Positions 8,165 to 26,572 are shown, counted from the stretch's first letter. The stretch: DNA of 64,000 nt from Longimicrobiales bacterium (GCA_965116905.1 OZ220732.1:4032001-4096000), one strand, 5' to 3'. Numbers and translations: made by a program. The notes: a model not told the origin generated them from the sequence alone.

Positions 8165-8195
8165 ATGCCGACGCGACACGCCCGGAACATATGTG

Positions 8196-8224
8196 TTGCC
8201 TACCAGCAAGCGGACGTGTATGAT
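8196..8224 (+). promoter_or_regulatory. Putative sigma70 promoter of the precursor gene
   Basis: TTGCCT (8196-8201), 17-nt spacer, TATGAT (8219-8224); strong AAGGGAGG RBS downstream. Confidence 0.6.
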
Positions 8225-8274
8225 TGTCTGAGAGTGTTGTCCTGTGTCGAAGTTCAGAACTAAGGGAGGAAGCT

Positions 8275-8526
8275 ATGAGAAGCGGCGACGAAATGTTGCA
8301 GCAAATCGTGGAGAAGTCCGCGCTGGACACGGAGTTTCGGCAACGGCTTCTTACAGATCCAAAGACCGCGATCAGTGGCGAGCTGGGCATTACGATCCCC
8401 GATTCGATGAACATCAGGGTCCATGAGAGCGACATGCAGACGGTGCATCTTGCGCTGCCGCCGGATCCGAACATCACCGAGGAGCAGCTCGAAGCCATCT
8501 CGGCCGGCCTCTGCTGCTGCTGGTAG
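8275..8526 (+). CDS. srpE: NHLP-leader (proteusin) RiPP precursor, core LCCCW
   Basis: 83 aa. NHase-like leader (IVEKSALDTEFRQRLLTDPK...IRVHE...HLALPP), then ITEEQLEAISAG double-Gly-type cleavage motif, then core LCCCW. Symbol assigned by recollection of the sponge-microbiome srp cluster. Confidence 0.93.
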   Translation: MRSGDEMLQQIVEKSALDTEFRQRLLTDPKTAISGELGITIPDSMNIRVHESDMQTVHLALPPDPNITEEQLEAISAGLCCCW

Positions 8527-8533
8527 AGCCCCG

Positions 8534-8554
8534 TAGTCGGCGAGTAGTCGACTA
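8534..8554 (+). terminator. Stem-loop after the precursor (mRNA stabiliser or attenuator)
   Basis: TAGTCGGC-GAGTA-GTCGACTA (one G-U pair); a second stem CGGCGG..CCGCCG at 8581-8600; no clear U-tract. Confidence 0.4.
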
Positions 8555-8667
8555 ACAACGCATTCGAGATCGCTCCCATCCGGCGGACATGTTGCCGCCG
8601 TGCTGGTGGATCGTACAATCAATCCGTCTTCTCACTCTGGACCCTGCGGCGCGGGAGGTAGCGACGC

Positions 8668-9924
8668 GTGACGGGCCGGTTATGGCGAATCGGGTGGCGC
8701 AACCTCGGCCGTAACCGGAAGCGAACAGTTCTCACCGCGCTCGGCCTCGCGGTCGGCTACTTTTCCGTGGTGTTCATGGTCGGCTGGGCCGAGGGGGTCT
8801 CGACGGGACTCGTCGAGAACGCCACGTCGCTGGTCAGTGGGCAGATCGAGATCCACGACGCCGACTACCGGCCCGAGCGCAGCCTTTACGAGACCATCGG
8901 CGGACGCGAGGGTGCCGACGTGGCGGACCTCCTGCGCACCATCGAGGCCGATCCCTCGGTCGTGGCCGCCGCCCCGCGCGTGTACGCGAGCGGGCTCGTG
9001 AGTTCCGGCGAGGCGACATCGGCCGGCACTCTGCTCGGCGTCGACCCCGAGCGCGAGCTGGCGCTGACACGTTTTCTGGATCCCCTGGCAGCGGGCCGCC
9101 TGCCTGCCACCGGCCAACACGAAGCCGTTGTGGGAGACGAGATGGCGCGGCAGCTCGAGCTGAGCATCGGGGACGAACTCGTCGTCGTCGCCTCGGCGGC
9201 GGACGGCTCGATGGGCAACGACCTGTACACGGTCACCGGCATCTTCCGGACCGGCCTGCTCGAGTTCGATGCCGGCACCATGGTCATTCCGGTCGCAGAC
9301 CTGCAGACGCTCGTGGTCCTCGATCCGGATCGGGTCCACGAAATCGCAGTCAGCACCGACGATCCGTCGCAAGCCGACCTGACCGCGACCCGCCTCGCAT
9401 CCACCCTTGGAGCCCCCGAGCGGGCGATGTCGGTCGCGCCGTGGACCGAGCTCAATCCGGTGCTTGCCCAGTATGTCGCGCTCGCGGATGCGATGTACTG
9501 GATCTTCATCGTCCTCATCTTTTCAGTCGCCAGCTTCGGCATCGCCAACACGACGCTGATGGCCACCTTCGAACGCCGCCGCGAGTTCGCCGTCATGCTG
9601 GCGATGGGTGCATCGCCGCGGTCCGTGGTGGGCACGGTGCTGTCCGAGGCGGTCGCGACCGGCGTCATCGGGCTGGGCCTCGGGACCGCCGTCACGGCGC
9701 CGCTGTTGATCTGGTTCTCCACGGCGCCGCCCGACATCGGATGGCTCTTCGCAAACCTCACCGTAGAGGGCGTCCTGCTGACGCCGAGTCTCCGGGTGGG
9801 GGCCAACGTACCGGCATGGACCTGGGCGACAATCGGCCTCATCGTCACGGCACTCGTCTCCGCCCTCTACCCGGCAATCCGTGCCGCGCGGGTGCCGCCT
9901 GCCGACACTCTCTCGGGCCTGTAG
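8668..9924 (+). CDS. ABC transporter permease, FtsX/LolE/MacB-like
   Basis: WRNLGRNRKRT N-terminus, periplasmic domain, ERRREFAVMLAMGA, and YPAIRAARVPP C-terminus. Confidence 0.9.
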   Translation: MTGRLWRIGWRNLGRNRKRTVLTALGLAVGYFSVVFMVGWAEGVSTGLVENATSLVSGQIEIHDADYRPERSLYETIGGREGADVADLLRTIEADPSVVAAAPRVYASGLVSSGEATSAGTLLGVDPERELALTRFLDPLAAGRLPATGQHEAVVGDEMARQLELSIGDELVVVASAADGSMGNDLYTVTGIFRTGLLEFDAGTMVIPVADLQTLVVLDPDRVHEIAVSTDDPSQADLTATRLASTLGAPERAMSVAPWTELNPVLAQYVALADAMYWIFIVLIFSVASFGIANTTLMATFERRREFAVMLAMGASPRSVVGTVLSEAVATGVIGLGLGTAVTAPLLIWFSTAPPDIGWLFANLTVEGVLLTPSLRVGANVPAWTWATIGLIVTALVSALYPAIRAARVPPADTLSGL

Positions 9925-9926
9925 CC

Positions 9927-11204
9927 GTGCTCCTGCGCGTCCTGGTCCGGCTCGCCCTCAGGAACCTGCGCCGTCATCTGCGTCGCACGGTGCTGACTGC
10001 CTCGGCGATGATGGTCGGCGGCGCATTCCTGGTCTGGTCGATGACGATCGATGACGGCAGCCACGAACAGTGGGTCGATTCCGGTGTGCGCATGGGGAGC
10101 GGACACGTGACCATCGAGCGGCCCGAGTACCGGCTGCGCCGCCAGATCGACGACCGGCTGCCGACGGACGTCAGCCGCGCCGCGGAGCAGGCACTGGCCT
10201 CTCCCGAGGTCGCGCGGCACGTCGTGACCGTGTCCGCCAAACTCGGTATCAACGGCCTGGCGAGTTCGGCGGCCGGTGCCCGCCCGGCGGAGATCGTGGG
10301 GGTCGATCCCGTCGCCGAAGCGGCCTTCGGCACAATCGACGATGCGGTGATCGAAGGGCGCTACCTCGAGCCCGATGATCGGCTGGCGGCCTATGTCGGC
10401 GCCGATCTGGCCCGCAGCCTTGGACTCGAGATCGGATCGCGCTTCGTCGTGCAGGCGCAGGGCACCGATGGCGAGATTGCGGGGCAGCTGCTCTACGTCA
10501 TAGGGATCTTCCGCAGTCGCGTGCCCGCCATCGACCAGGCGACGATTCACGTCACGCTCGCGACAGCCGGCGAGTGGCTCGGTTCCGGTAGCGACGTGAC
10601 CAACGTCGCGGTCGTGCTGCAAGGCAGCGGCAGGACCCGGTGGGTCTCCGACCGCCTGGCGCGGGCGCTGGCGGAGCCGGTGGAACGCGGCGAGGCACGC
10701 GTCGTAGAGTGGCGCGAGGCGAACCCTGTCCTGGCGGCAGGGGTCGCGATCGACGAATTCGGCAACTACGTGATTCAGGGGTTCCTGTTCGTCATCATCG
10801 CGTTCGCGATCGTCAACACGGTGCTGATGTCGGTGATGCATCGCCAGCGCGAGTTCGGCGTGCTTCAGGCGCAGGGGCTGACGCCGGGTCAGACGGGCAC
10901 CGTCGTGCTCATCGAAGGCCTCACGCTATCCGCGGTCAGCGGGCTCGTCGGCGTCGGCCTGGGACTCCTGGGCACCTGGTATTTCTTCGGCGACGGTTTC
11001 GACTCGTCGGTCTTCATGCGGGGTATCGACGAGTTGACATTCTCGGGTGCCGCCGTTGATCCCATCATCGTGCCAATCTTCGGGGTACGACGCATTGTCC
11101 AGGTTGTCGCGTTCATTCTCGGCATTGGCATTCTCGCCTCGGTCTATCCCGCGCTGCGCGCCGCCCGGGTCGACGTTACCGAGGCGATGAAGTTCGATCG
11201 GTAG
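9927..11204 (+). CDS. ABC transporter permease, FtsX/LolC/MacB-like
   Basis: ALRNLRRHLRRT, HRQREFGVLQAQG and YPALRAARVDV; GTG start 2 nt after the previous stop. Confidence 0.9.
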   Translation: MLLRVLVRLALRNLRRHLRRTVLTASAMMVGGAFLVWSMTIDDGSHEQWVDSGVRMGSGHVTIERPEYRLRRQIDDRLPTDVSRAAEQALASPEVARHVVTVSAKLGINGLASSAAGARPAEIVGVDPVAEAAFGTIDDAVIEGRYLEPDDRLAAYVGADLARSLGLEIGSRFVVQAQGTDGEIAGQLLYVIGIFRSRVPAIDQATIHVTLATAGEWLGSGSDVTNVAVVLQGSGRTRWVSDRLARALAEPVERGEARVVEWREANPVLAAGVAIDEFGNYVIQGFLFVIIAFAIVNTVLMSVMHRQREFGVLQAQGLTPGQTGTVVLIEGLTLSAVSGLVGVGLGLLGTWYFFGDGFDSSVFMRGIDELTFSGAAVDPIIVPIFGVRRIVQVVAFILGIGILASVYPALRAARVDVTEAMKFDR

Positions 11205-11210
11205 GAGGTC

Positions 11211-11912
11211 ATGGCAATGAGTAAAACGGCAGCCGCCCGGACCGACGGCGTCTGGAAGGTCTTCCAGCAGGAAGCTGAATCCGTCGAGGCGGTCCGCGAC
11301 GTCAGCCTGACCATAGAGCGTGGCGAGTTCACCGCGCTTGCGGGACCGTCGGGCTCCGGCAAGACGACGCTGCTGAATCTGATCGGTGGCCTGACCAGCC
11401 CCACAAAGGGACGGGTCTGGGTGGCCGGGCACGAGGTGAGCCGCATGTCGACCCGGGATTTGGCGCGGCTACGGCTCGAGGAGGTTGGCTTCGTCTTTCA
11501 GGCCTATAACCTGCTCCCCGTGCTCACGGCATTGGAGAACGCGGAATTCCCGATGCTCCTCCAGGGCGTGCCCGTGAAGGAGCGTCAGGCGCGGGTCCGC
11601 GAACTCTTTGCGCGAACGGGCATGGAAGGGCTCGAAGACCGGCGCCCGGGCAAGCTGTCAGGCGGCCAGCAGCAGCGCGTCGCCGTCGTCCGTGCGGTGG
11701 CTGGCCGTCCGGCCCTCGTGCTTGCGGACGAGCCGACGGCGAACCTCGACTCGGTCACCAGCGAAGCGCTCCTCGATGTCATGGGCGAGCTGAATCGCGA
11801 CCTCGGAGTGACCTTCGTCTTCGCCACCCACGACAGCCGCGTCATGGAGCGGTGCCGGCGTCTGGTCCGCATGGTCGACGGCGCTGTGCGTGACGACGAG
11901 CCCGGATCCTAG
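11211..11912 (+). CDS. ABC transporter ATP-binding protein (LolD-like)
   Basis: GPSGSGKT, LSGGQQQRV, LADEPTANLD and ATHD motifs. Confidence 0.95.
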   Translation: MAMSKTAAARTDGVWKVFQQEAESVEAVRDVSLTIERGEFTALAGPSGSGKTTLLNLIGGLTSPTKGRVWVAGHEVSRMSTRDLARLRLEEVGFVFQAYNLLPVLTALENAEFPMLLQGVPVKERQARVRELFARTGMEGLEDRRPGKLSGGQQQRVAVVRAVAGRPALVLADEPTANLDSVTSEALLDVMGELNRDLGVTFVFATHDSRVMERCRRLVRMVDGAVRDDEPGS

Positions 11913-11933
11913 CAGCCAGCCTGGGTGGCGAGA

Positions 11934-13226
11934 CTAGCAGCCTAGACCCTGGGACACCTGGGCATAGCTGGTAAGCGGGACCGCGCACATCCGATGCCAG
12001 TCCTCCTGGTCGATGACGGGTTGGTTCAACAGTTCAATCATCTCGTCGAAGTCATGGAGCGCGGAGCACCCCACCACCGCCGGGTCCGCTGCCTGCCGGT
12101 GTCGTGGCCAGGCGCGGTCACGAGCATGGCGCCAGAAGCCGCTGTTGTACCTGGAGCCGCACGAGTAGTGCCAGCCGACGAACAGGCCGTAGCGGATCAT
12201 GTTGTTGATGAGGAACCGATTGACCACGGGCGCGTCGCGCTCGAGATGCTCCGGCGGACGGCTGAGGCGCGTCCGGAGCACCATCCCGATCTGCAATTGG
12301 GCGGATACGATCGCCGTTGCCTCGAGCGGCTCCATGAAGGCCGCTGCGTTGCCGATGCGGGCCACGGCACCGTCGTAGATCCGACGGTGGACGAAGTTGG
12401 GAAACCCGATGACGGCGCGCTGCTCAAACTCGGACACGCCGTCGGCCTCGAGGAGCCTGTCAAAATCCGATTCGACGTCGACCAGGCTCGACAGGTTGCC
12501 GTTGAAGACGTACCCGTAGGATGTGTGGGCAGTGAGCGGAATCACGAATACCCAGCCGTGTCGACGCGCAACCGCGCGCGTGTACGTGTGCTGGAGCACC
12601 GGTCCATCCCGCTCTTCGCTGAAGACCGGCGGACAGCGGCGTATGACGGCCGTATCGGTGGGGATGAAGGGAAGGTCGATGTGCTGGTCGGGACGGAGCT
12701 CCCTGGGGAACCCGCGCGCATCGAACACGAGGTCGTACCGTTCCGGCGGCCGGCCCTCGAATTCCACGCGAGCGCCGCCACTCACCCTGGTGATATCGAG
12801 TACCCTCGCATCGATGTGCCGCGCGCGCGTGCCTTCGTGGAGCAGGTCCGCCATCAGGTCGGCGGACAGGTGGTAGGCGTAGGACACCTGCTGCGGCGTG
12901 AAGTAGTGGGTGAAGTCCCGATCGCGTCGGCCCCATCCCTCGAACGCGACACCGTACTTGCGAGTCCCACTCAGGCGCTGCTGTACGGTGTCGTGCGGCA
13001 GACTCGTCAGCTGTTGCAGCTCCCGAACCAGGCTCGGCCAGCTGCCTTCACCGACTCCGATCACCGGGATCCGCGAGTCGTATATGTGGTGCAGCTCGTG
13101 ATCGCTGTCGGGATGAAGACGCGTCACGCTGGCGGCCGCCAGGCACCCTGCGGTCCCTCGCCCCACAACCGCGATCTTCCGTAGGGATTCGCTCTTCCGT
13201 AAGGACTCGGTGCCTGGGTGTATCAC
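11934..13226 (-). CDS. srpI: Flavin-dependent tryptophan halogenase (SrpI-like peptidyl brominase)
   Basis: IAVVGRGTAG FAD motif, IGVGEG, catalytic Lys in GTRKYG, GWVFVIPL (WxWxIP variant) and FMEPLEAT. Start placed at GTG 13226 with a GGAGG RBS. Confidence 0.85.
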   Translation of the reverse strand: MIHPGTESLRKSESLRKIAVVGRGTAGCLAAASVTRLHPDSDHELHHIYDSRIPVIGVGEGSWPSLVRELQQLTSLPHDTVQQRLSGTRKYGVAFEGWGRRDRDFTHYFTPQQVSYAYHLSADLMADLLHEGTRARHIDARVLDITRVSGGARVEFEGRPPERYDLVFDARGFPRELRPDQHIDLPFIPTDTAVIRRCPPVFSEERDGPVLQHTYTRAVARRHGWVFVIPLTAHTSYGYVFNGNLSSLVDVESDFDRLLEADGVSEFEQRAVIGFPNFVHRRIYDGAVARIGNAAAFMEPLEATAIVSAQLQIGMVLRTRLSRPPEHLERDAPVVNRFLINNMIRYGLFVGWHYSCGSRYNSGFWRHARDRAWPRHRQAADPAVVGCSALHDFDEMIELLNQPVIDQEDWHRMCAVPLTSYAQVSQGLGC

Positions 13227-13367
13227 CCCAAATGCCCTCCACGACCGTCGACTGCGGGACTCTTCGATGTGCCGCGGACAGCAAGCTAACACGATCTTCG
13301 CATCATCGCCGTCGGCGCGGCTCTCGTCGTTTCCTTGGGGGACGAGGTCTGCACCGTTCACCCGAGG

Positions 13368-13376
13368 TGTTATACT
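13368..13376 (+). promoter_or_regulatory. Putative extended -10 promoter (TGnTATACT) for the transporter/maturase operon
   Basis: TGTTATACT in the divergent intergenic region, ~55 nt upstream of the HlyD-like gene. Confidence 0.45.
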
Positions 13377-13432
13377 ACCCGGCGAGACCGGTCCGTCCCT
13401 GCTTGATCGTGATGAGGAGTCTGTGTGGAGCC

Positions 13433-13984
13433 GTGTTCAATAACCCGCTTGGTTCGTTTCACAATACCGTTGCCGAAGCAAAGGAAGAACGCGAGCAACT
13501 CGACCGTCTGCTGACGGTTTCCACACCGCGAGAGCGCCTGCTTGTCACAGTCATCGCTCTTGTGTTGGTCATCTTCATCACCTGGCTCTTTTTCGGCAGC
13601 GTAGCCCGTAGCCTTGCGATCGACGGCGTACTCGAGGAGTCCGGCCAAAACCTGTCCGAAGCCGCCCAGTCAGTGCAGGCGCTGGTCTGGATCGAGAACG
13701 ACGTTCTGCCCGAGGTCAGGGCCGGGATGCCGGCGTCGATCGAACTGGGCGGGGCGGATGGAGACGCGGGCACGATTGGCGGAGAGATTACGATGATTTC
13801 CGCTGTCCGCCTGCCCGAGCTTCCAGCGGCCTTCGAGTCCGCAGTGCCGGCCTCCGTCCATCGCGTCCAGATCGCGCTCGACGAAAGCCCCGACTCTTCC
13901 TTCGTTGCGGGCCGGGAATGCCGGATCGTCATCGAAATCGGCACCCAGGCTCCGATCGCACTCCTGCGACTGGGGCAACCATAG
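13433..13984 (+). CDS. Short NHLP-system secretion accessory protein (HlyD-like, internally reduced)
   Basis: EQLDRLLTVSTPR motif plus a TM helix typical of NHLP HlyD N-termini; VRAGMPA..G.I..IS beta-barrel remnant; C-terminal QAPIALL; only ~183 aa. Confidence 0.7.
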   Translation: MFNNPLGSFHNTVAEAKEEREQLDRLLTVSTPRERLLVTVIALVLVIFITWLFFGSVARSLAIDGVLEESGQNLSEAAQSVQALVWIENDVLPEVRAGMPASIELGGADGDAGTIGGEITMISAVRLPELPAAFESAVPASVHRVQIALDESPDSSFVAGRECRIVIEIGTQAPIALLRLGQP

Positions 13985-13985
13985 C

Positions 13986-16199
13986 ATGCCGTCGATCGCC
14001 TTCAGAGGAGTTGGCGACAAGAAAGCCGCCGGGTTCAAGGCAAAGCACAGGATCACCACGCCCATTGTGCTGCAGGTGCATGCGTCGGAGTGCGGTGCCG
14101 CCTGCCTCGGCAGCATCCTCGGCTACTTCGGACGCTGGGTTCCGCTGACCGAGCTGCGGGAAAGATGCGAAGTGAGTCGAGACGGAAGCAGTGCGGCGAG
14201 CATCGTGCGCGCCGCCAGACATTATGGTCTCGAATCCAGCGGACTCAGTTTGCGCGCCGATCAACTGAAAAAGCTGCCGTTGCCGCTGATCGTGTTCTGG
14301 CAATTCAGTCATTTCCTCATCGTCGAGGGGTTCGACGGCCGCAACTTCTATCTCAATGATCCGTCCACGGGACGGCGCAAGCTTTCCGCCGAGGAGTTCA
14401 CCCGGGGCTACAGTGGCATTGCGCTCCGATTCAAGCCGGGCCCCGACTTCAAACCCGGCGGTGAACGGCCCGGACTGGTCAGACAACTGCACGCCCTGCT
14501 CGCCGGATCATGGGGCGTGCTCACCTGGGTGATCGCGTGCGGCCTCATGTTGACGCTGCTGGCCCTCATTGTCCCCGCATCTCTGGGCGCATTCGTGGAC
14601 GATGTGCTGGAAGACCGGGGGCCCTGGGGCGGCATCGTGACGGCACTGCTCGGCGGCGGCGTCCTCGTCTATATCCTGTCCCTGCTCAAGCACCGGTTCC
14701 TGAAGCGACTCGCAGTCCGGATTTCGGTGACCGGCTACAGTCGTGGCTTGTCGCGGCTGCTGCGGTTGCCGGTGGAGTTCTTCGAACACCGGCTCGTGGG
14801 CGATCTGACGGATCGAGTCTCGTCCATCGACAGGATCGCGAGGAATCTGACGGAGCAGTTTCTTGTGCTCGTTATCGACATGGGAATGAGCGCCGTGCTG
14901 CTTGCTGCCATGTTGGTCTACGACGTCCGGCTCACACTGGTCGTGCTCGTTCTGGCCGTTATGCATGGCGTGCTGGCGCACTTTCTGAACGGCGTCAGAG
15001 CCGTTCGAAGCCAGGCGATGAGACGCGAACAGGGACTGCTGATCGGCATCGGCATGCAGATGCTGAGCCATGCCGACAACCTGCGCATGACGGGATCGGA
15101 CGACCATTTCTTTTCGCGGTGGACCGGTCATCAGGCGCGCGAACTGCATGCGCGCCAGCGCTACTCGGAGCTGGGCTCCGTCAATGCCGCGCTTCCGGGT
15201 CTGATCGTCGCCCTTCGAGGCGCGGCGATCCTGGGCATCGGCGGAAGTCTGGTCCTGGCCGGGGAAATGACCCTGGGGGCGCTGGTCGCGTTCTACATCC
15301 TGAGCGAAATGTTCCTGGCGCCGGTCGGGCGATTCCTGGAGTTCGCCGAGAAGCGCCAGGCCCTCGAAACCGATCTGCAGCGACTCGAAGACATCTCCAG
15401 GACCGCCGAGGACCCCGCCCTCATCCGCCAAAGTCAGCACTCCGAGTCGATTCCGACTTTCAAGGGCCAGCTTCAGCTCGCCGGCCGGCTTGAGCTGCGA
15501 GACGTCACCTTCGGGTTCAACAAGAGCCGGCCGGCTCTCATCAAGGACTTCAACCTCCTGATCAGGCCGGGGCAGCGGGTTGCCGTGGTCGGTCCGAGCG
15601 GTTCCGGCAAGTCGACCCTCGCGCGTCTGATTGCCGGTGTCTACCAGCCCTGGTCGGGCGACATCCTGTTCGATGGCTATCCGCGGGATGAGATTCCCGA
15701 TGGGGTGCTGCGGCAGTCCATCTCCATGGTGGATCAGGAGGTGGTGCTCTTTTCCGCGTCCGTGCGCGACAACATCACCCTGTGGAACCCCGCCGTTCCG
15801 GACGAGGCCATCTTCGCGGCGGCGCGCGACGCCCGGATCCATGACGAAATCCTGCTTCGGCCGGATGGGTACGCCACGCGGGTCGATGAGGGCGGCGTGA
15901 ATTTCAGCGGCGGCCAGCGGCAGCGGCTGGAGATCGCCCGCGGGCTGGTGGGCGATCCCACGCTCCTCATTCTGGATGAGGCGACCAGCGCCCTCGATGC
16001 CGCGACGGAGGAATACGTCGATGATGCCCTGCGCCGTCGGGGTGTCACCTGCCTGATCGTGGCGCACCGGCTGAGCACCGTGCGGGACAGCGACGAGATC
16101 ATCGTGCTCGACAAGGGCGTCGAAGTGCAGCGCGGGACGCACGACGAGCTGATGGGGGATCGGGACGGCACCTACTACAAGCTGGTCAGATCCGGCTGA
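13986..16199 (+). CDS. NHLP-type peptidase-containing ABC transporter (C39 + TMD + NBD)
   Basis: QVHASECGAACL (Cys), FWQFSHFLIVEG (His) and NDP; GPSGSGKS, FSGGQRQR and LDEATSALD. Confidence 0.95.
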   Translation: MPSIAFRGVGDKKAAGFKAKHRITTPIVLQVHASECGAACLGSILGYFGRWVPLTELRERCEVSRDGSSAASIVRAARHYGLESSGLSLRADQLKKLPLPLIVFWQFSHFLIVEGFDGRNFYLNDPSTGRRKLSAEEFTRGYSGIALRFKPGPDFKPGGERPGLVRQLHALLAGSWGVLTWVIACGLMLTLLALIVPASLGAFVDDVLEDRGPWGGIVTALLGGGVLVYILSLLKHRFLKRLAVRISVTGYSRGLSRLLRLPVEFFEHRLVGDLTDRVSSIDRIARNLTEQFLVLVIDMGMSAVLLAAMLVYDVRLTLVVLVLAVMHGVLAHFLNGVRAVRSQAMRREQGLLIGIGMQMLSHADNLRMTGSDDHFFSRWTGHQARELHARQRYSELGSVNAALPGLIVALRGAAILGIGGSLVLAGEMTLGALVAFYILSEMFLAPVGRFLEFAEKRQALETDLQRLEDISRTAEDPALIRQSQHSESIPTFKGQLQLAGRLELRDVTFGFNKSRPALIKDFNLLIRPGQRVAVVGPSGSGKSTLARLIAGVYQPWSGDILFDGYPRDEIPDGVLRQSISMVDQEVVLFSASVRDNITLWNPAVPDEAIFAAARDARIHDEILLRPDGYATRVDEGGVNFSGGQRQRLEIARGLVGDPTLLILDEATSALDAATEEYVDDALRRRGVTCLIVAHRLSTVRDSDEIIVLDKGVEVQRGTHDELMGDRDGTYYKLVRSG

Positions 16200-19138
16200 T
16201 GCGGGACACGAGGCCGGAGCACACGTCCATTGCGGAACTCGCCACCAGCGCGGGCGAGTCCGTGCCCTGCGCCGGCAACCTGCCCGTGAAGCTCGACGAC
16301 CCGGACTCCGTCTGGTTCATCGACGAGGGCGCCGTCAATCTGTTCCTGGTCGAATTCAGGGACGGGTTGGATCATGCGGCACCCCAGCACCTGCTCCGCC
16401 GCGAAGCGGGCTGGCTGCTGCCGGGCGTCGCACCCAACGAACCGCACGGGGCGGAAGATACCACGCTCAGCCTGGTCGCCAAGGGATCGCCGGGCACCAT
16501 TCTGAAGCGCCTGCCGGCATCCCTGCTCTCCGAGGTCGATCCGGCGGAGCTGGCGGAACAGACGGAAACCTGGCTGGCCGCGATCACGGACACCCTCTCG
16601 CGCTTTGCGAGTCACCGTCCACGGCCGACGGCGCTGGCCGAGCCCGGTCTGACACGGAGCCTCGCCCCCTGTACGCTCTCCGTACGACGAGGCGTCGTAT
16701 GGGTATCCGAACCCCCACGCGGCGCCAGCCTCTTCATGGACCTGGTCGACCAGGCGGCACTTACCGGAGGGAGCGGCCCGCACGAAGCGCTGATACCGCT
16801 GACGCGGGCAAGCTGGCTCACGCTCTCGGACGAGGTAACGCTCTCGGCCAGTTCGACCGAGACACTGGCACGGCAGGGCACCCTGCTCTCGGCGCTCGCA
16901 TCCTTTCACGCGGTCGCCTTCGCCGTGGAGCGCCTGAACCGCGTACTGGCCGTAGTCGACCACGCGAATCTCGAACGCGCGCGGACCACGAGCCGCTACG
17001 CGGCCGAGAGAACTGCGCGGCAGCGGCTTTTCAACATCTATGACCTGCCGATCGACCGGGACGCGAGTGTCGAGGACACGTCGCTGGCGGACGCGCTGCA
17101 GCCGATCGGACGCCGTGAAGGGATTGATTTCAAGATCCCCGTGCGCCCGGGATCCTCCGGTGCCCCGGTCAGCCTCGTCGACGTCCTCGTCGCTTCAGGC
17201 GTGCGCGCCCGGCGCGTGCGGTTCACGAACGAGGGCGCCTGGTGGCGGGGCGACAGCAACGCGATGCTGGCGTTCCGCGCCGAAGGCGGCCAGCCTGTGG
17301 CGCTCCTGCCGGGATGGTTCGGGCGCTACCGGGAATTCGACCCGGTCAGCAAGCGTAGTGTCCGGATGACGGCGGATCGTGCCGCCGCGCTGGCGGACGA
17401 GGCCTGGGTGTTCTACCGGCCGCTGCCCGAGGGGAACGTGAGGCCGGCGGACCTGCTGAGATTCGCGCTGCGTGGATCGGCCGCGGATCTGGCGCGGCTG
17501 GTGATGGCCGGCCTTCCGGGCGGCCTGATCAAGCTGGTGCCCGCACTCGCGCTCGGGTTCGTCGCAAACCAGACGGCGGGCGGCGGAACCGCCGGAGCGG
17601 TCTATGCCGCGGCCGTGGCGGTGGCGGGCTTCGGCGTGCTCGGCGCCCTGCTGCACCTGCTTCAATCCACGGCGATGACGCGGCTCGAGGGGCGCTCGGC
17701 TTCGCGCGTCGAAGCGGCGTTCTGGGACCGCCTCATGCGCCTTCCGCCAAGCATTCTGCACCGCCATCCGTCGGGCGATCTGGCCATGTCGGGGATGACG
17801 TTCCAGAATCTCCGCGACGGGTTGCAAGGCGTCGTTGCCGACGGCCTGCTATCGATCCTCTTTCTGCTTCCGGTTCTTGGTGTCATCTTCCTCTACGATG
17901 CCACCCTCGGGGCCATCGCCCTCGCCTTCAGCCTGGTTTCGCTCCTGATCACGGTTGTCCTCGGACTGCGCCAGGTTCCCCCCTGCGGGCGGATGATCCG
18001 CGCGGCGCGGCGCGTCTCCGGCCGGTTGTTCCAGATCGTGGGCGGCATAAGCAGACTGCGTGTGGAAAACGCGGAAGCGTCCGCTTTCGCCATGTGGGCG
18101 CGGGACTACCGGGAGCAGAAACGCGCCGAGCTCGAAATGGCCGGGCTCGAGGGACATTCGCGCGCATTCGGCGCCGCGCTCCCCTTTCTTGCCGCCGGGG
18201 TCCTGCTGGCGGTCGTGGCCGTGGGCGACAGGGACCTTCCGGTGGGCGATTTTCTCGTCGTCTACCTCGTCCTCATCGCCTTCCAGTACGCCATCGCCCG
18301 ACTCGGCGAATCCCTTGGCACGGTCGCCGCCATGCTCCCGGGGTTCGACCAGATGCGCCCGCTCCTCGCCGCGGCTCCCGAGACCGAGGCCGAAGGAGCG
18401 CCGGTCGAGTATCTGGGCGGCGACATTCTCTTCGACCGCATTTCCTTCCGGTACGATCCCGACGGGCCGCTGATCCTGGACGATGTCACGATCCGCGCCC
18501 GCCCCGGAGAATTCATCGCGATCGCGGGTGAGTCCGGCGCCGGCAAGAGCACCCTCTTCCGGCTGGCGCTCGGATTCGACCGGCCCACCGCCGGCGCGGT
18601 CTATTACGATGGACGCGACCTGAGGCACCTGAACCTGAAGCAGGTGCGCCGCAGAATCGGCGCGGTGCCGCAATCCGTCGGCCTGCATCCCCTCGATATC
18701 TGGGACAATCTCGTCGGTCACCACGATAAGGTGGCGAGTGACGAGGTATGGGCGGCGGCGCGAGTCGCCAACGTCGAAGAAGAGATCAAGAGCATGCCGA
18801 TGGGCATGATGACCATGGTCGGCACGAGCGGAAGCGTCCTGTCGGGCGGCGAGAGTCAACGTGTCACTATTGCCCGGTCGGTGATCGGCAGCCCGCAGAT
18901 CATGCTCTTCGACGAGGCCACCAACTGGCTGGACAACGAGAGCCAGGCCAATGTCATGCGGAATCTCAACGCCCTGACCTCGACCCGGGTTGTTATCGCG
19001 CACCGCTTGTCCACCCTGGAACAGGCCGATCGCATCTACGTGCTGCAGGCCGGAAAAGTCGTACAGAGCGGCTCCTTCGACGAACTCTTGGAGGGCGACG
19101 GGGTGTTCAGGGAGTTGGTGAAAAGGCAGATCGCCTAG
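16199..19138 (+). CDS. NHLP-system ABC transporter permease/ATP-binding protein (second subunit, no active peptidase)
   Basis: Long N-terminal domain, WWRGDSNAMLAF degenerate C39-like region, TMD, GESGAGKS, LSGGESQR and FDEATNWLD; start overlaps the previous stop. Confidence 0.93.
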   Translation: MRDTRPEHTSIAELATSAGESVPCAGNLPVKLDDPDSVWFIDEGAVNLFLVEFRDGLDHAAPQHLLRREAGWLLPGVAPNEPHGAEDTTLSLVAKGSPGTILKRLPASLLSEVDPAELAEQTETWLAAITDTLSRFASHRPRPTALAEPGLTRSLAPCTLSVRRGVVWVSEPPRGASLFMDLVDQAALTGGSGPHEALIPLTRASWLTLSDEVTLSASSTETLARQGTLLSALASFHAVAFAVERLNRVLAVVDHANLERARTTSRYAAERTARQRLFNIYDLPIDRDASVEDTSLADALQPIGRREGIDFKIPVRPGSSGAPVSLVDVLVASGVRARRVRFTNEGAWWRGDSNAMLAFRAEGGQPVALLPGWFGRYREFDPVSKRSVRMTADRAAALADEAWVFYRPLPEGNVRPADLLRFALRGSAADLARLVMAGLPGGLIKLVPALALGFVANQTAGGGTAGAVYAAAVAVAGFGVLGALLHLLQSTAMTRLEGRSASRVEAAFWDRLMRLPPSILHRHPSGDLAMSGMTFQNLRDGLQGVVADGLLSILFLLPVLGVIFLYDATLGAIALAFSLVSLLITVVLGLRQVPPCGRMIRAARRVSGRLFQIVGGISRLRVENAEASAFAMWARDYREQKRAELEMAGLEGHSRAFGAALPFLAAGVLLAVVAVGDRDLPVGDFLVVYLVLIAFQYAIARLGESLGTVAAMLPGFDQMRPLLAAAPETEAEGAPVEYLGGDILFDRISFRYDPDGPLILDDVTIRARPGEFIAIAGESGAGKSTLFRLALGFDRPTAGAVYYDGRDLRHLNLKQVRRRIGAVPQSVGLHPLDIWDNLVGHHDKVASDEVWAAARVANVEEEIKSMPMGMMTMVGTSGSVLSGGESQRVTIARSVIGSPQIMLFDEATNWLDNESQANVMRNLNALTSTRVVIAHRLSTLEQADRIYVLQAGKVVQSGSFDELLEGDGVFRELVKRQIA

Positions 19139-19265
19139 CAGTCCGTGGATAAACCCACGCGAGCACCGAGAGCGGCGAGGCGCCGGGCCGGATGCATTCG
19201 CCGCTCGAATGCCGCGGGGGTTTGTTCACGGGCTGCCTGATCCGAATCCCTCTCCGGAGACATCG

Positions 19266-20564
19266 ATGAACGGATCGATTGACGCGCACACCCTCGTATC
19301 GAGAGCCGACAAGGACAGCGACTTTCGCGAACGTCTTCTCCGGCACCCCAGGGAAACCGTCGAGAAGGAATTCGGCGTGACGCTGCCGGAAGACCATGAG
19401 ATTCACGTACACGAGGAGACCTATGGCGCGACACATGTGGTGCTTCCGCCGCGGAACAGGTTCAGCGAGGCCGAGCGGGAGGCGGCCAGGACCGGCAGGG
19501 CATCGCTCGAGTATCTTCGGAGTACTCTCCACGATCCCGCACCGCCCCTTCGTTCTCCGGCACCGAAACGAGGCGAAGTCCGAAGCGGCGGGGCCGGCTC
19601 CGAGGCGCTTGCAGAGGCGGCGAGGGAAGGGATCCGCCGAGGGCTTGCCTTCCTGGAATCCACAATCGACGAGAATGGGGCTTGGCACTGCATCCGGTTC
19701 AACGTTGCCGACCCGGACATTCCCAGGCACTTCGAGAGGCCTCCTTTCGTGTCGGCTCTCTGCGCGCTCGCCCTTGAGAGATCCGATGAGCCGCGGGCCA
19801 GGGCGATATGCACGGCGACGAAGGCGTATCTCATCGACACCATCGAGTATCCCGGACTGTGGCGATACTACCGTCACCTGCCCCCGGATCTCGACAGTAC
19901 CTCGCTCTGTGCGATGGTTATCGGGACGCACCCCTGGATCTGGCTCGGACGGAATGTTCCCGGGATACTGGCGAATCGCGACGAGGAGGGCCGCTTCATG
20001 ACCTGGGTGCTGGCGGAAGACGAACCCGATGTCGTGTCGCCGTTTCGCATCGAGGCCGACCCCGTCGTCAATGCGAACGTCATCGCCTGGCTGGGCGACC
20101 GTCCGGAAACCAGGGATGCCCAGCGATGGTTGGAACACCTGGTGACCGATGGGAGCCTGGAGGGCTCGTCGAAATGGTATCCCGACACGATCTCGATCCA
20201 CTATGCGATCGCCCGCGCGACGGTTCGCGCAAAGCCCGCCCTCGAGGCGTTGCGCCCGATGCTCGCAGATCGTATCCTCGGCCTCCGTGACCGGAAGGGA
20301 GGATTCGGCAACGTTCTTCAGACCGCTCAGGCGGTGTCGGCGCTCTACAGTGTCGGAAGCCTCGGGCGCATCGACGTGAAGCGGGAGGTGGAGGGGCTGA
20401 TGAACTCGCAGCGCGGGGACGGCAGCTGGCCGGAGCTGCTCGCGTTCGGCGACCAATCGTTGAAGTGGGGTTTGGTGGGGCAGATCGGGCATGGCTCCGA
20501 GGCCGTGACCTCCGCGTTCTGTATCGAGGCCCTGGAGTGTCTCGTCGAAGGGCTTGGGGCCTGA
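19266..20564 (+). CDS. NHLP-leader-like domain fused to a class II terpene cyclase/prenyltransferase-like alpha-barrel domain
   Basis: N-terminal ~75 aa align by eye with the precursor leader (DSDFRERLLRHPRE...GVTLP...IHVHEE...HVVLPP). C-terminal region has PPDLDSTS (DxDxT), DPVVNANV and QRGDGSW (QW repeat). Confidence 0.75.
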   Translation: MNGSIDAHTLVSRADKDSDFRERLLRHPRETVEKEFGVTLPEDHEIHVHEETYGATHVVLPPRNRFSEAEREAARTGRASLEYLRSTLHDPAPPLRSPAPKRGEVRSGGAGSEALAEAAREGIRRGLAFLESTIDENGAWHCIRFNVADPDIPRHFERPPFVSALCALALERSDEPRARAICTATKAYLIDTIEYPGLWRYYRHLPPDLDSTSLCAMVIGTHPWIWLGRNVPGILANRDEEGRFMTWVLAEDEPDVVSPFRIEADPVVNANVIAWLGDRPETRDAQRWLEHLVTDGSLEGSSKWYPDTISIHYAIARATVRAKPALEALRPMLADRILGLRDRKGGFGNVLQTAQAVSALYSVGSLGRIDVKREVEGLMNSQRGDGSWPELLAFGDQSLKWGLVGQIGHGSEAVTSAFCIEALECLVEGLGA

Positions 20565-20566
20565 GC

Positions 20567-22888
20567 GTGCCCACCGATACGGCGCGCGCGGGCCCACGGC
20601 CCGGGATCCTGGCCCGGACGACTCTCGCGGACCGGGGCATCGTCAAGCTTCCCGCGCTCACCCCGCACCTTCGATTCCACGATATCGGCGAGGGGCGGGT
20701 GCTCCTCGTCTCCGAGTCGTTCAATACGCTGCTGCACGGCAAGCTGTACGGCGACTTGCTGCCGCTGCTCGACGGCCGGCACGCCGGGGACGAGATCGTC
20801 GCGGCCCTCGAGGGCGCCCACGCGCCCACCAACGTCCTGGCGGCCCTGGCCGCGTTCGCCGCCAAGGGGTACCTGGTCTCCGCCGATCACGGGATGGACC
20901 TGTGCCAGGCAGCCTACTGGTCGTCGCTCGGGGCGTCGCCACGCTGGGCCGAGGAGCGGCTGGCGCAGGCGCGCGTCACGGTCGAGGGTGACGACGGCCG
21001 GCTCGCCCGGCATCTGGAGGAGGCCGGCGCCAGCGTGGGAGGCACCGGTCCGGCGCTGACCGTCGTCGTCTGCGCCGACTATCTCGATGCGCATCTCGCC
21101 GAGGTGAATCGGCGCCAGCTCAAGGCGAGAGCGCCGTGGACCCTGGCGCGGCCGAGCGGGATGGAGCCGCTGTTCGGCCCCATCTTCCGCGCTGACGGGC
21201 GGGGGCCTTGCTGGGACTGCCTCGCATGCCGCCTGCGCAGCCACGGGGAAGTCCACGCTTTCCTGCGCAACGTCGCCGGCGAGGAAGCCGCCTTCAGGCC
21301 GTTCGCGGCCCAGCCGGCCGCGCTGGGAGCAGTGTACGGGCTGATCGCGGCGGAGATCGTCAAATGGCTGGTGCTGGATCAGGCGGCCCCGATTCACGAA
21401 CAGGCGATCGCGATGGACATCGCCACATTCACGAGTTCGCAGCACCGGGTCGTGCGCAGGCCGCAGTGTCCGGAGTGCGGCGACGAGGCCCTGCGCCGGC
21501 CGGATCGACCGCCCCTTCCGGTGTCTCTGAAGGCGAGCCCCAAGGCCCATCGCAACAGCGGCGGCGCGCGCGCCGTGCCGCCGGGAGCCACCCTGGCGAA
21601 GTACCGGCATCTGGTGAGCCCGGTCAGCGGCGTCGTCACCTGGCTGTCGCGCACCACCGATGAGACCGACTCCTGGCTGCACGTCTACTGGGCCGGGAGC
21701 AATTCCGGGATGAGAAGCCGAAGCCTGAGTTCGCTGAGGCGCAGCCTGCGCAGCAAGAGCGCCGGCAAGGGCAGCACCCGGCAGCAGTCCAGGGTCAGCG
21801 CGCTTTGCGAGGCGATCGAGCGGCATTCGGGCGCCCGCCATGGGGACGAGATCCGTGTTGCCAGGCGATTCATCGAGTTCGCCGGGCGAGAAGAGGCGAT
21901 CCACCCCAACGATGTGCAGCTGTTCAGCGAGAGTCAGCTCGACGACGCGGAGAGCATCAACGCGAAGGGCCACCCCTACAACATCGTCCCGCCACGTCTC
22001 GATCCCGACGCCGAGATCGATTGGACCCCGGTCTGGTCATTGACGCAGCGGCGGCACCGGTACCTGCCCACGTCCATCCTGTACAGCATGCTGGCCGAGG
22101 AGCGCGGCCCTGCGGACCTGATTGCCGATTCGAACGGATGCGCCGCGGGCAACACCCTTGAAGAGGCGATCCTGCAGGGTTTCTACGAACTGGCCGAGCG
22201 CGATGCGTTCGCCGTCTGGTGGTACAACCGGCTGCAAGTGCCGGCGGTCGATCTTTCCAGCTTCGACGACGAGTACCTCGAATCGGCCGCGGACTACTAC
22301 GGCCGCCATGAGCGGGACCTGTGGATGCTCGACGTCACCTCCGATATCGGCATTCCCACCTTCGTCGCGCTCTCGCGTCGGCCGAACGCCGAAACCGAGG
22401 ACATCATCTACGGCGCCGGCACCCACGCCGACCCGCGGATCGCCGCCCTGCGCGCGCTCTGTGAACTGAACCAGTGCCTCACCTGGCTGCCGCGTCCCGG
22501 GGCGGCGGACGGCCGGCCCAGGATCGACGATCCGCTGGCGCTCCGGTGGTGGAAGACCGCCCGCCTCGCCGAATGTTCCTGGCTGGCGCCGGCGCCGGAC
22601 GAGCCGCTCCGCAGGGCTTCGCAGTATCCGGTGACCGAAGCGGCGGACACGCGCGAAGATGTGGAATACTGCCGCTCGCTTGTCGAAGCCAGGGGCATGG
22701 AGTTCCTGGTGCTCGATCAGACGCGGCCGGATATCGGCATGCCCGTGGCCCGGGTCATCGTGCCGGGCATGCGCCATTTCTGGGCAAGGTTCGCGCCCGG
22801 GCGCCTGTACGACGTGCCCGTCCATCTGGGGTACCGCGAGCACCCGCTCTCCGAAACCGGCCTGAATCCCGCACCTGTGATTGCGTGA
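20567..22888 (+). CDS. srpC: Fused TOMM cyclodehydratase (leader-binding/E1-like C domain + YcaO D domain)
   Basis: GPCWDCLACRL and RRPQCPECG (C domain); SAGKG, SALCEAIER, SNGCAAG and ELAERDA (YcaO ATP motifs); C-terminal NPAPVIA. Confidence 0.93.
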   Translation: MPTDTARAGPRPGILARTTLADRGIVKLPALTPHLRFHDIGEGRVLLVSESFNTLLHGKLYGDLLPLLDGRHAGDEIVAALEGAHAPTNVLAALAAFAAKGYLVSADHGMDLCQAAYWSSLGASPRWAEERLAQARVTVEGDDGRLARHLEEAGASVGGTGPALTVVVCADYLDAHLAEVNRRQLKARAPWTLARPSGMEPLFGPIFRADGRGPCWDCLACRLRSHGEVHAFLRNVAGEEAAFRPFAAQPAALGAVYGLIAAEIVKWLVLDQAAPIHEQAIAMDIATFTSSQHRVVRRPQCPECGDEALRRPDRPPLPVSLKASPKAHRNSGGARAVPPGATLAKYRHLVSPVSGVVTWLSRTTDETDSWLHVYWAGSNSGMRSRSLSSLRRSLRSKSAGKGSTRQQSRVSALCEAIERHSGARHGDEIRVARRFIEFAGREEAIHPNDVQLFSESQLDDAESINAKGHPYNIVPPRLDPDAEIDWTPVWSLTQRRHRYLPTSILYSMLAEERGPADLIADSNGCAAGNTLEEAILQGFYELAERDAFAVWWYNRLQVPAVDLSSFDDEYLESAADYYGRHERDLWMLDVTSDIGIPTFVALSRRPNAETEDIIYGAGTHADPRIAALRALCELNQCLTWLPRPGAADGRPRIDDPLALRWWKTARLAECSWLAPAPDEPLRRASQYPVTEAADTREDVEYCRSLVEARGMEFLVLDQTRPDIGMPVARVIVPGMRHFWARFAPGRLYDVPVHLGYREHPLSETGLNPAPVIA

Positions 22889-22895
22889 GGAGAAC

Positions 22896-24008
22896 ATGGA
22901 TACCGACGCGGCCGTCGCACTGACCCAGGACCGTCTCGCCGAGGAGGGCGACACGATGGGTGAGCTGCTCGGGCACTTCCGAAATCGAATCTCGCCGGTC
23001 CTGATCGGAGATCCGCAGTGGGAGCGCATACTCGAGCGCGCCGGAAAGCTCCCCATCACAATGGGCGCGCTGCCATTCGGTTTCGAACTGCCGCTGCATG
23101 CAAGCGAGCCCAGGGCGGACTTCGGCGTCTCCCTCGCGAGCGGAACGAGAACGGCGGCCTTTTTCCAAGCGCGCGCACGCACCGACGCGACGGATGAGAC
23201 CGCGAGGGTGATCACGCGGCTCTTCGGCCGGATGGAGACGGAAGACTCGCCCCTGCGTGGGATTGTCGGCCGCAAACTGATGCTGGAATACGATATCGGC
23301 TCGGCAGGAGACGGTGAGCGTTCACTTCCGGGAATGTTCCTCCGGCCCGGTGAACGCCCGATTCTCGGCGCCCGCGGCCAGGTGGATGATGTCCGTGCGG
23401 TCGCGGACGCGCTGTTCTCCTGCGCAGGCTGGGAGATGAGCGGCCCCGAGCGCGAGAACATCGAACGGGTCTACCTGGCACAGCCGGGAGACACGCGCAT
23501 GGATTCGTTCGGTGTGTTCCCGTCGCGCTCGCGGTTCATCCGCCTGGCGATCATGGGCTTCAGATCGCGGCACGCGACGTGGTGCTATCTCGAAGACGCC
23601 GGCTGGCCGGGTCATATCCCGGCTGTCGACTCCCTGATCGCGCGCTTCGACGAGCGCGCGAGCATTCGCAGGACCGGGGTGAACATCGATGTGCGGGAGG
23701 AGGGCGTCGGACCGACGCTCGGCCTCACGCTCATCGTCAAGCAACGTTATACGAAGGACTCGCGCTATTGGCTCGACGGCCTGACCGATTGGCAGCCGTT
23801 CCTGGAGGCCCTGGGCCATGAGGACCTTGTCGTTCCGGAGAAGCTCGGGGCGCTTGCCGGCTGGGTCTCGAAGCCGACAACGCTCTTTGGGAAGTCCGGG
23901 CGGTTCGTGCTGCTGCGTGGCATTCACCATATCAAGCTGGTCGTATCCGGAGACCGGCTTCGACAAGCCAAGGCCTACGTGTTCATGGTGCTTTCCGGGG
24001 CGGTGTAG
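22896..24008 (+). CDS. Conserved hypothetical RiPP-associated protein, possible ABBA-fold prenyltransferase
   Basis: GAGGAG RBS directly after YcaO. Alternating alpha/beta pattern with FGFEL..RADF, LEYD, GWPG, NIDV..GPTLGL and HHIKLV..AKAY. Function is inferred only. Confidence 0.5.
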   Translation: MDTDAAVALTQDRLAEEGDTMGELLGHFRNRISPVLIGDPQWERILERAGKLPITMGALPFGFELPLHASEPRADFGVSLASGTRTAAFFQARARTDATDETARVITRLFGRMETEDSPLRGIVGRKLMLEYDIGSAGDGERSLPGMFLRPGERPILGARGQVDDVRAVADALFSCAGWEMSGPERENIERVYLAQPGDTRMDSFGVFPSRSRFIRLAIMGFRSRHATWCYLEDAGWPGHIPAVDSLIARFDERASIRRTGVNIDVREEGVGPTLGLTLIVKQRYTKDSRYWLDGLTDWQPFLEALGHEDLVVPEKLGALAGWVSKPTTLFGKSGRFVLLRGIHHIKLVVSGDRLRQAKAYVFMVLSGAV

Positions 24009-26465: not shown

Positions 26466-26572
26466 CGTCGAAACCCTCGGCTTATTGCAATCGCTCCCCC
26501 GCACGTCCGATCCCAACGTATTCTTGCCTGCCGCGCCCCGTCGGTCAACTGTCGTCCTGCGCCCCGCGCCTC

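Follow-up and report, generated by a model that had tools for sequence, protein, structure and literature searches.

The DNA analysed here, hereafter the window, is a stretch of 64,000 nucleotides (nt) from a Longimicrobiales bacterium. It comprises positions 4,032,001-4,096,000 of a single-contig 4.2-Mb genome (97% complete), has a G+C content of ~68% and finds its closest relatives among metagenome-assembled genomes (MAGs) of Gemmatimonadota/Longimicrobiales. Between positions 8275 and 24008 it carries a proteusin gene cluster of the srp type, which an earlier note on this DNA had read as a hybrid of peptide and terpene biosynthesis. The genes named there, for a precursor, a YcaO protein, a halogenase, a terpene-cyclase-like protein and a putative prenyltransferase, all lie where that note had placed them. 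The precursor, the only one of the SrpE type in the 4.2-Mb genome, is encoded on the + strand at 8275-8526 (ATG 8275, TAG 8524-8526) and has 83 amino acids (aa), an NHLP leader (TIGR03793, 1.3e-19), the I-x4-L motif ITEEQL and the C-terminal end ITEEQLEAISAGLCCCW; its C-terminus reads ITEEQLEAISAG-LCCCW, with an Ala-Gly cleavage site of the double-Gly type. A flavin-dependent Trp halogenase, putatively of the SrpI type, is encoded on the - strand (11934-13361) and is placed at the level of the family by PF04820 (1.3e-41). The remaining three genes are consecutive on the + strand, and the gaps of 2 and 7 nt reported between them are exact: the gene for the cyclase-like protein (19266-20564, start possibly 19209) ends with TGA at 20562-20564, the YcaO gene (20567-22888) runs from GTG at 20567 to TGA at 22886-22888, and the prenyltransferase-like gene (22896-24008) begins with an ATG at 22896 that is preceded by GAGGAG. 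The YcaO protein is a fused E1-like/leader-binding/YcaO cyclodehydratase of the SrpC type with TOMM leader-binding, winged-helix and YcaO domains (PF02624 9.3e-95, TIGR03604 5.5e-80, TIGR03882 1.9e-41, PF21084 9.2e-9).

The srp cluster was reportedly first published in 2021 by Nguyen et al. in JACS. Passages of PMC10858898, PMC10286304 and bioRxiv 10.1101/2023.06.09.544420 identify SrpE as the precursor, SrpC as the YcaO protein and SrpI as the Trp brominase. Those of the first two sources describe srp homologues in which the YcaO enzyme makes three thiazolines from the three Cys of LCCCW and the halogenase carries out C-terminal Trp-6 bromination on the leader-bound peptide, and the core and the YcaO and halogenase chemistry proposed in the earlier note agree with these reports. 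The passages of the third contain the ITEEQL variant of the recognition motif and state that, within sponge microbiomes, srp clusters belong to the biosynthetic clusters with the widest spread and the highest transcription. Across the srp passages of this literature, activities are reported only for SrpC and SrpI, and no natural product is assigned.

We assign the window cluster to srp because an LCCCW core, an NHLP leader, a YcaO protein and a halogenase are all present and match SrpE, SrpC and SrpI as described there. With the published clusters it shares the LCCCW core, the NHLP leader, an ITEEQL-type I/L-x4-L motif before the cleavage site, the fused YcaO protein, the Trp halogenase, NHLP-type ABC exporters and a spread across many phyla. 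In contrast, the Gemmatimonadota arrangement has the precursor and halogenase genes 10-14 kb upstream of the YcaO block, an AlkB/GlnE gene downstream on the opposite strand and an inserted MacB/FtsX system. Judged by its genes, the window cluster is a complete, ordinary copy of the canonical srp proteusin cluster, with nothing essential different, because the prenyltransferase-like and cyclase-like genes are standard in srp clusters of many phyla. The cluster itself is therefore known; what would be new is its predicted terpenylating chemistry, a variant of the kind known from the prenyltransferase-cyclase NctPC. With moderate confidence we predict that two conserved genes of this srp copy serve to prenylate the peptide and likely to cyclise the chain.

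The prenyltransferase-like and cyclase-like proteins

The gene at 22896-24008 (+ strand) encodes a 370-aa protein of a Pfam-less family which, according to AlphaFold2 and fold searches, resembles prenyltransferases of the ABBA fold. The model built with 96 family members (predicted local distance difference test, pLDDT, 95.2; predicted template-modelling score, pTM, 0.93) has five alpha-alpha/beta-beta units and displays the ABBA ten-stranded barrel of repeated alpha-beta-beta-alpha units. A Foldseek search of the PDB gave 102 matches at E <= 1e-3, with E-values from 4e-6, and all 41 of the matches listed are ABBA aromatic prenyltransferases, among them 6-DMATS, NphB/Orf2, AmbP1, IptA, TleC, EpzP, PriB, DMATS1 and FgaPT2. 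VIA-align placed MpnD first (Z 16.9, root-mean-square deviation 4.3 A over 301 residues), followed by DMATS1, 6-DMATS, CymD, FunA, AnaPT and FgaPT2 at Z ~15 over ~300 residues; 133 chains reached a Z of at least 8, and the 50 listed are again all ABBA prenyltransferases. Although mean column identity among the 96 sequences is 30%, 20 columns are at least 90% conserved, and these include E64, R211, R216, H345, K347, K359 and Y361 on or beside predicted strands. ABBA enzymes use a Glu base together with Arg, Lys and Tyr residues that line the barrel for the diphosphate and, judged by residue type, the conserved set of the window protein may be of this kind. In a feature atlas, neighbours with Trp_DMAT lie at 0.90, which serves as a lead only. 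The model therefore points to the fold of an indole-type prenyltransferase, and we class the protein as one that folds like these enzymes rather than as a member of their known families; at this level of fold, the note's "possible prenyltransferase" is borne out. The protein is similar to bacterial DMATS-type enzymes (MpnD, 6-DMATS, CymD, IptA, PriB) in its length of ~350-370 aa and in its alignment over the whole barrel (Z up to 16.9), but differs from them in sequence (7-13% identity, no Pfam Trp_DMAT match) and in its presumed substrate, a leader-bound peptide instead of a free amino acid or small molecule.

An exhaustive search collected 483 representatives of this family (E <= 1e-3, down to 25% identity). 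Ten longer members gave no match in a Pfam search. The search for fused forms covered proteins of 707-2015 aa and returned one protein, P0391. In its 851 aa a YcaO domain is combined with a match to the prenyltransferase-like family (43% identity, 65% of the query covered), and it may be a true fusion or a merged gene call. For a distant member (P0292), a metagenome scan of its context yielded a single weak, partial match. In a genome of the same genus as the window, the prenyltransferase-like gene (G324:C72:21211-22314) has a TGA within the match and may be a broken copy or reflect a sequencing error.

The protein encoded at 19266-20564 consists of an NHLP leader-like domain and a class II terpene-cyclase-like domain. 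Residues ~9-80 (window 19266-19510) form a near-complete copy of the NHLP leader fold (TIGR03793, 5.4e-13). Over 71 aa they share 34% identity with the precursor (E 2e-17), whose Ala-Gly cleavage site is replaced here by Thr-Gly; in NCBI records, homologues carry the name "nitrile hydratase subunit alpha". To our knowledge, no natural enzyme for a RiPP (a peptide that is ribosomally synthesised and modified post-translationally) is fused to the leader domain of its own substrate. The second domain matches SQHop_cyclase_C weakly (1.6e-5; 24.5 bits, below the Pfam cut-off of 26.1) and the class II domain of a drimenol synthase, PDB 9mhs_B, at E 1.1e-4 (query 96-317 against chain 317-524). In this alignment PPDLDSTSL falls on PDDLDTTSM of AsDMS, so that DLDST at residues 208-212 appears as a variant of the general-acid motif DxDD/DxDTT with Ser for Asp/Thr at position 4. 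All 67 homologues (66-89% identity) keep D-L-D-S, as DLDST in 62, DLDSS in four and DLDSA in one. In AsDMS the DxDTT motif gives the proton, and exchange of the middle Asp for Asn abolishes cyclisation, according to passages of PMC9128629. Neighbours in the feature atlas are single-domain SQHop_cyclase_C/AstC-like_C proteins of 320-360 aa at 0.92-0.97.

From the sequence alone we infer an alpha/alpha barrel for this domain, and its class II acid motif and its similarity to 9mhs_B bear out the label "terpene-cyclase-like" of the earlier note. A reading of the alpha/alpha domain as a LanC-like Zn site, suggested by a conserved Cys and GHG, was dropped since the significant sequence matches are to terpene cyclases only. 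Compared with the HAD-fused class II cyclases AsDMS and AstC (PDB 9mhs; passages of PMC9128629), the similarity extends over ~210 residues (E 1.1e-4) with the acid motifs aligned. The window protein differs, however, in its partner domain, which is NHLP leader-like instead of a HAD phosphatase, in its presumed substrate, a peptide-bound chain instead of the free farnesyl diphosphate used by AsDMS, and in the Ser that replaces the first Thr of DxDTT.

Spread of the pair and its fused and distant relatives

Both proteins are common. Searches gave 1024 matching protein clusters among 7997 scored candidates for the prenyltransferase-like protein and 1093 matching clusters for the cyclase-like protein; the 120 clusters listed for the former show 77-93% identity across most of the query length, and the sources named for a few of them are Acidobacteria and Gammaproteobacteria MAGs. 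Relatives of the prenyltransferase-like protein are encoded in 351 stretches or species genomes (one genome per species) of many phyla, and we counted cluster genes around the best 80 of these 351 (74-93% identity) by tblastn at a coverage of at least 50%. These 80 loci belong to MAGs of Gemmatimonadota, Acidobacteriota, Alpha- and Gammaproteobacteria, Binatia, Opitutales and Thermodesulfobacteriota, and that they come from sponges is taken from the record names and from published work. Many of the missing genes are accounted for by contig ends; 52 loci have full 10-kb flanks. The cyclase-like gene and ABC2 were each found at 67 of the 80 loci (51 of the 52 with full flanks), the YcaO gene at 66 (46), the precursor at 59 (39; of the 59, 58 have LCCCW and one LCCSW), the AlkB/GlnE fusion at 54 (37), the C39 exporter at 45 (35) and the halogenase, at 76-82% identity, at 25 (19). 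The earlier note would have counted it as a refutation if the two genes did not accompany LCCCW-type precursors in other genomes; both do, and the note is not refuted on this point.

A profile search detected the prenyltransferase-like family in 30 of 401 Gemmatimonadota genomes, among them 9 of the 23 that belong to the same genus as the window (its own genome excluded), and 12 of the contexts were inspected. One of them (L089, genome G310) encodes both domains in a single 721-aa protein (9778-11943): its N-terminal part is a member of the prenyltransferase-like family by profile (E 7e-29) and by BLASTP (5e-8), and its C-terminal part matches SQHop_cyclase_C at 4.2e-8, above the Pfam cut-off, and aligns to the window cyclase (E 1e-4), the alignment ending with DADST opposite DLDST. 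The locus also encodes an isopentenyl diphosphate (IPP) isomerase (NF002995, 163 bits), two PqqD-like proteins, a transglutaminase-like and an HPr-kinase-like protein and a small Nif11-like open reading frame (ORF). As a whole, the region at 8027-13533 resembles a lasso-peptide locus, possibly for a terpenylated peptide of another class. A dxr gene near the fusion was not counted, as it adjoins a peptidase_M50 gene and in our judgement looks like a housekeeping linkage.

Fused prenyltransferase-cyclases have been reported to act on cyanobacterial proteusins. One fused enzyme, NctPC, is said to have been described as a bifunctional RiPP prenyltransferase-cyclase by Hubrich et al. in Chem in 2024. 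Passages of a review (PMC13290415) state that its ABBA-barrel P domain geranylgeranylates Trp and that its MstE-like C domain cyclises the chain, and they name only Trp as acceptor. The L089 fusion has the layout reported for NctPC and supports the view of the window pair as a split form. Compared by description of domain layout, NctPC and the window pair share a predicted logic, an ABBA-fold prenyltransferase with a single-domain class II cyclase, and the window precursor is an NHLP peptide with a C-terminal Trp. However, NctPC, like the L089 fusion, is one polypeptide, whereas the window has separate genes with the YcaO gene between them; moreover, the window cyclase has an N-terminal NHLP leader-like domain, and the core would also be cyclodehydrated and brominated. 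The split prenyltransferase-cyclase proposed in the earlier note is thus a fair description of the family, while the idea that this particular cluster is a special hybrid is not supported, since both genes are standard in srp clusters across phyla.

At six other loci, distant members of the prenyltransferase-like family directly adjoin NHLP precursors that carry double-Gly sites and whose cores are unrelated, and Trp occurs in five of the six distinct cores. At two of these loci (L086 8380-15336, L087 5524-11022), distant members lie beside NHLP precursors and LanM-like genes (DUF4135 with or without LANC_like), which hints at prenylated lanthipeptide-type proteusins.

The wide spread also bears on an explanation in which the pair makes a separate, peptide-free small terpenoid or indole-terpenoid and merely travels with the srp island as a unit. 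An island common to many phyla at 74-93% identity could owe its co-occurring genes to joint transfer. We nevertheless consider this explanation highly improbable: the cyclase and a leader-type domain form one polypeptide, distant prenyltransferase-like genes again adjoin NHLP precursors in otherwise different loci, and P0391, possibly a merged gene call, joins YcaO to the same family.

Predicted pathway, acceptor and competing explanations

In the predicted pathway, the prenyltransferase-like protein would transfer an isoprenoid whose diphosphate donor would be supplied by housekeeping enzymes, the two polyprenyl synthases encoded elsewhere in the genome. The most likely acceptor would be the Trp indole, because the nearest structural neighbours are indole prenyltransferases. 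In the cyclase, the middle Asp of DLDST would donate a proton to the terminal double bond and so start ring closure, and the NHLP domain would recruit the enzyme to the component that recognises the leader of the precursor. Finishing of the product, by an oxidative or a nucleotidyl step, would fall to the AlkB/GlnE fusion, and cleavage after Ala-Gly and export to the C39-peptidase ABC exporter. A more specific picture, in which the srp product is a peptide-terpenoid hybrid with the isoprenoid on bromo-Trp and with rings formed by a "leader-in-cis" cyclase that joins the leader-recognising machinery or the exporter, is possible but should be regarded as tentative. If the predicted chemistry is correct, the real srp product would be a lipidated polycyclic bromo-indole peptide, which gives masses to seek in sponge extracts and, with them, a testable guess at the final product of these clusters. 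In that case, hundreds of symbiont species would have a split counterpart of the fused cyanobacterial enzymes for RiPP terpenylation, a function could be given to a large family that is now unannotated (483 representatives at 50% identity), and the leader-bearing cyclase would exemplify a novel means by which tailoring enzymes locate their substrates.

Variant clusters with the core LCCCG, found in two genomes of the window's genus (L091 7240-19800, L092 787-13106), bear on the acceptor. They keep the YcaO protein (62-65% identity), both exporters and the AlkB/GlnE fusion (70-72%), and neither a cyclase nor a halogenase was found within 10 kb; upstream of the L091 cluster lie genes for a FAD_binding_4 oxidase and a DDE transposase. 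When five genomes of the genus were queried as a whole with the window cyclase domain and the halogenase, neither gene turned up in G304, G353 or G247 (96-97% complete) and both did in G132 and G000. These two genes thus appear to go with the Trp core, which fits an indole chemistry.

Another explanation accepts the ABBA protein as a prenyltransferase and places its isoprenoid on an acceptor other than Trp, namely the freed N-terminal amine, the C-terminal carboxylate or a thiazoline-derived atom, where the cyclase would also act. Here the LCCCG clusters count in its favour, as they keep a prenyltransferase-like gene (in L091 at 9670-10770) in both genomes without a Trp in the core, and Trp is likewise absent from one of the six distant NHLP-linked cores. 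Persistence of the protein without Trp means that Trp need not be the acceptor. However, the LCCCG-type proteins are 39% identical to the window protein and form, in a quick tree of 106 rows, their own well-supported clade apart from the srp clade, so that their specificity may differ. Together with the indole and Trp prenyltransferases among the nearest solved structures and with a cyclase and halogenase found only where the cluster has a Trp core, this makes a non-Trp acceptor unlikely in our view.

Several observations weigh against the prediction that the pair prenylates the peptide and cyclises the chain. By sequence, the prenyltransferase-like protein has no match in Pfam, NCBIfam or the PDB, and by profile none in the PDB: the Pfam prenyltransferase families (Trp_DMAT, PTase_Orf2 and related) are matched by 0 of 96 family members, and the family profile gave 0 matches against PDB sequences. 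The Foldseek TM-scores are modest (0.38-0.53), with 7-16% identity to solved enzymes, and a shared fold does not show a function, so that prenyl transfer by this family is a prediction only. For the cyclase-like protein, an AlphaFold2 model from 23 close sequences reached a pLDDT of only 42.6. The prenyltransferase-like gene is kept, at 39% identity, in the Trp-less LCCCG clusters, and the joint occurrence of the cyclase and the halogenase with a Trp core is drawn from five kin genomes, with the precursor read in G000, G304 and G353 only. No prenyl-diphosphate synthase was found in the window, and the two polyprenyl synthases of the genome lie 0.65 and 2 Mb from it. Finally, literature searches, which did not extend to the complete articles by Nguyen et al. 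and Hubrich et al., returned no paper that connects srp clusters with prenylation or terpene cyclisation, and the passages of the srp literature covered mention neither; "prenyl" and "terpene" each have 0 occurrences in PMC12537861, and the srp passages of PMC12615548 mention neither.

Some of these points would also suit an explanation in which the folds are kept without the chemistry, the ABBA barrel serving as a peptide-binding protein or scaffold and the leader-bearing domain as a binding, chaperone or immunity protein or as exported cargo, with a brominated tris-thiazol(in)e pentapeptide, perhaps oxidised, as the only product. It would fit the missing membership in any prenyltransferase family by sequence, the donor synthase not found in the cluster, the restriction of reported activities to SrpC and SrpI in the srp passages, and a full leader-like domain that has Thr-Gly for Ala-Gly, as cargo of the C39 exporter might. 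Against it stand the invariance of D-L-D-S in 67 of 67 homologues at 66-89% identity, the 20 columns at least 90% conserved with a Glu and a basic/Tyr set among them, and the L089 fusion of both domains next to an IPP isomerase. We therefore judge this explanation improbable, and somewhat more so than that of a non-Trp acceptor.

Other genes of the cluster and its surroundings

The protein encoded on the - strand at 24033-26876 joins an AlkB/fatty-acid-desaturase-like membrane di-iron domain (PF00487 3.5e-22) to a GlnE-like nucleotidyltransferase (PF03710 2.4e-10, PF08335 2.8e-5); the true start of its gene is probably near 26438. The fusion is a conserved member of the cluster, occurring at 54 of the 80 related loci, in most cases with the cyclase-like gene on one side and the YcaO gene on the other, and its role in the pathway is a prediction. 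Neither this conserved membership nor the leader-like domain of the cyclase had been seen in the earlier note.

Export would be carried out by a C39-peptidase ABC exporter (13905-16199, + strand; PF03412 3.7e-34, TIGR03796 833 bits) and a second NHLP-type ABC exporter subunit (16199-19138, + strand; TIGR03797 666 bits). NHLP export systems usually include a full HlyD-type membrane-fusion gene. In the window, a short ORF of 250 aa (13232-13984, + strand) overlaps the next gene and has a weak HlyD-like stretch (TIGR03794 7.9e-5 over 52 residues) and no match in a Pfam search; it may be the remnant of a membrane-fusion protein.

Between the precursor and the halogenase genes lies an ABC system on the + strand, with a MacB/FtsX-type permease (8668-9924; PF12704 3.5e-20, PF02687 1.1e-15), a second FtsX-type permease (ORF as listed 9441-11204, true start probably near 9900; PF02687 8.9e-17, residues 447-577) and a MacB-type ABC ATPase (11211-11912; PF00005 3.2e-36). 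The MacB/FtsX permease adjoins srp genes also in the Gemmatimonadota relatives L093 and L094. In proteobacterial versions of the cluster (L058 11707-13835), the place of this ABC system is taken by genes for a LolA-like outer-membrane lipoprotein-sorting protein and a DUF1302-like protein. Outside the cluster, the window encodes on the - strand a 768-aa protein with many ankyrin repeats (29360-31666); sponge symbionts are often reported to have eukaryote-like proteins of this kind.

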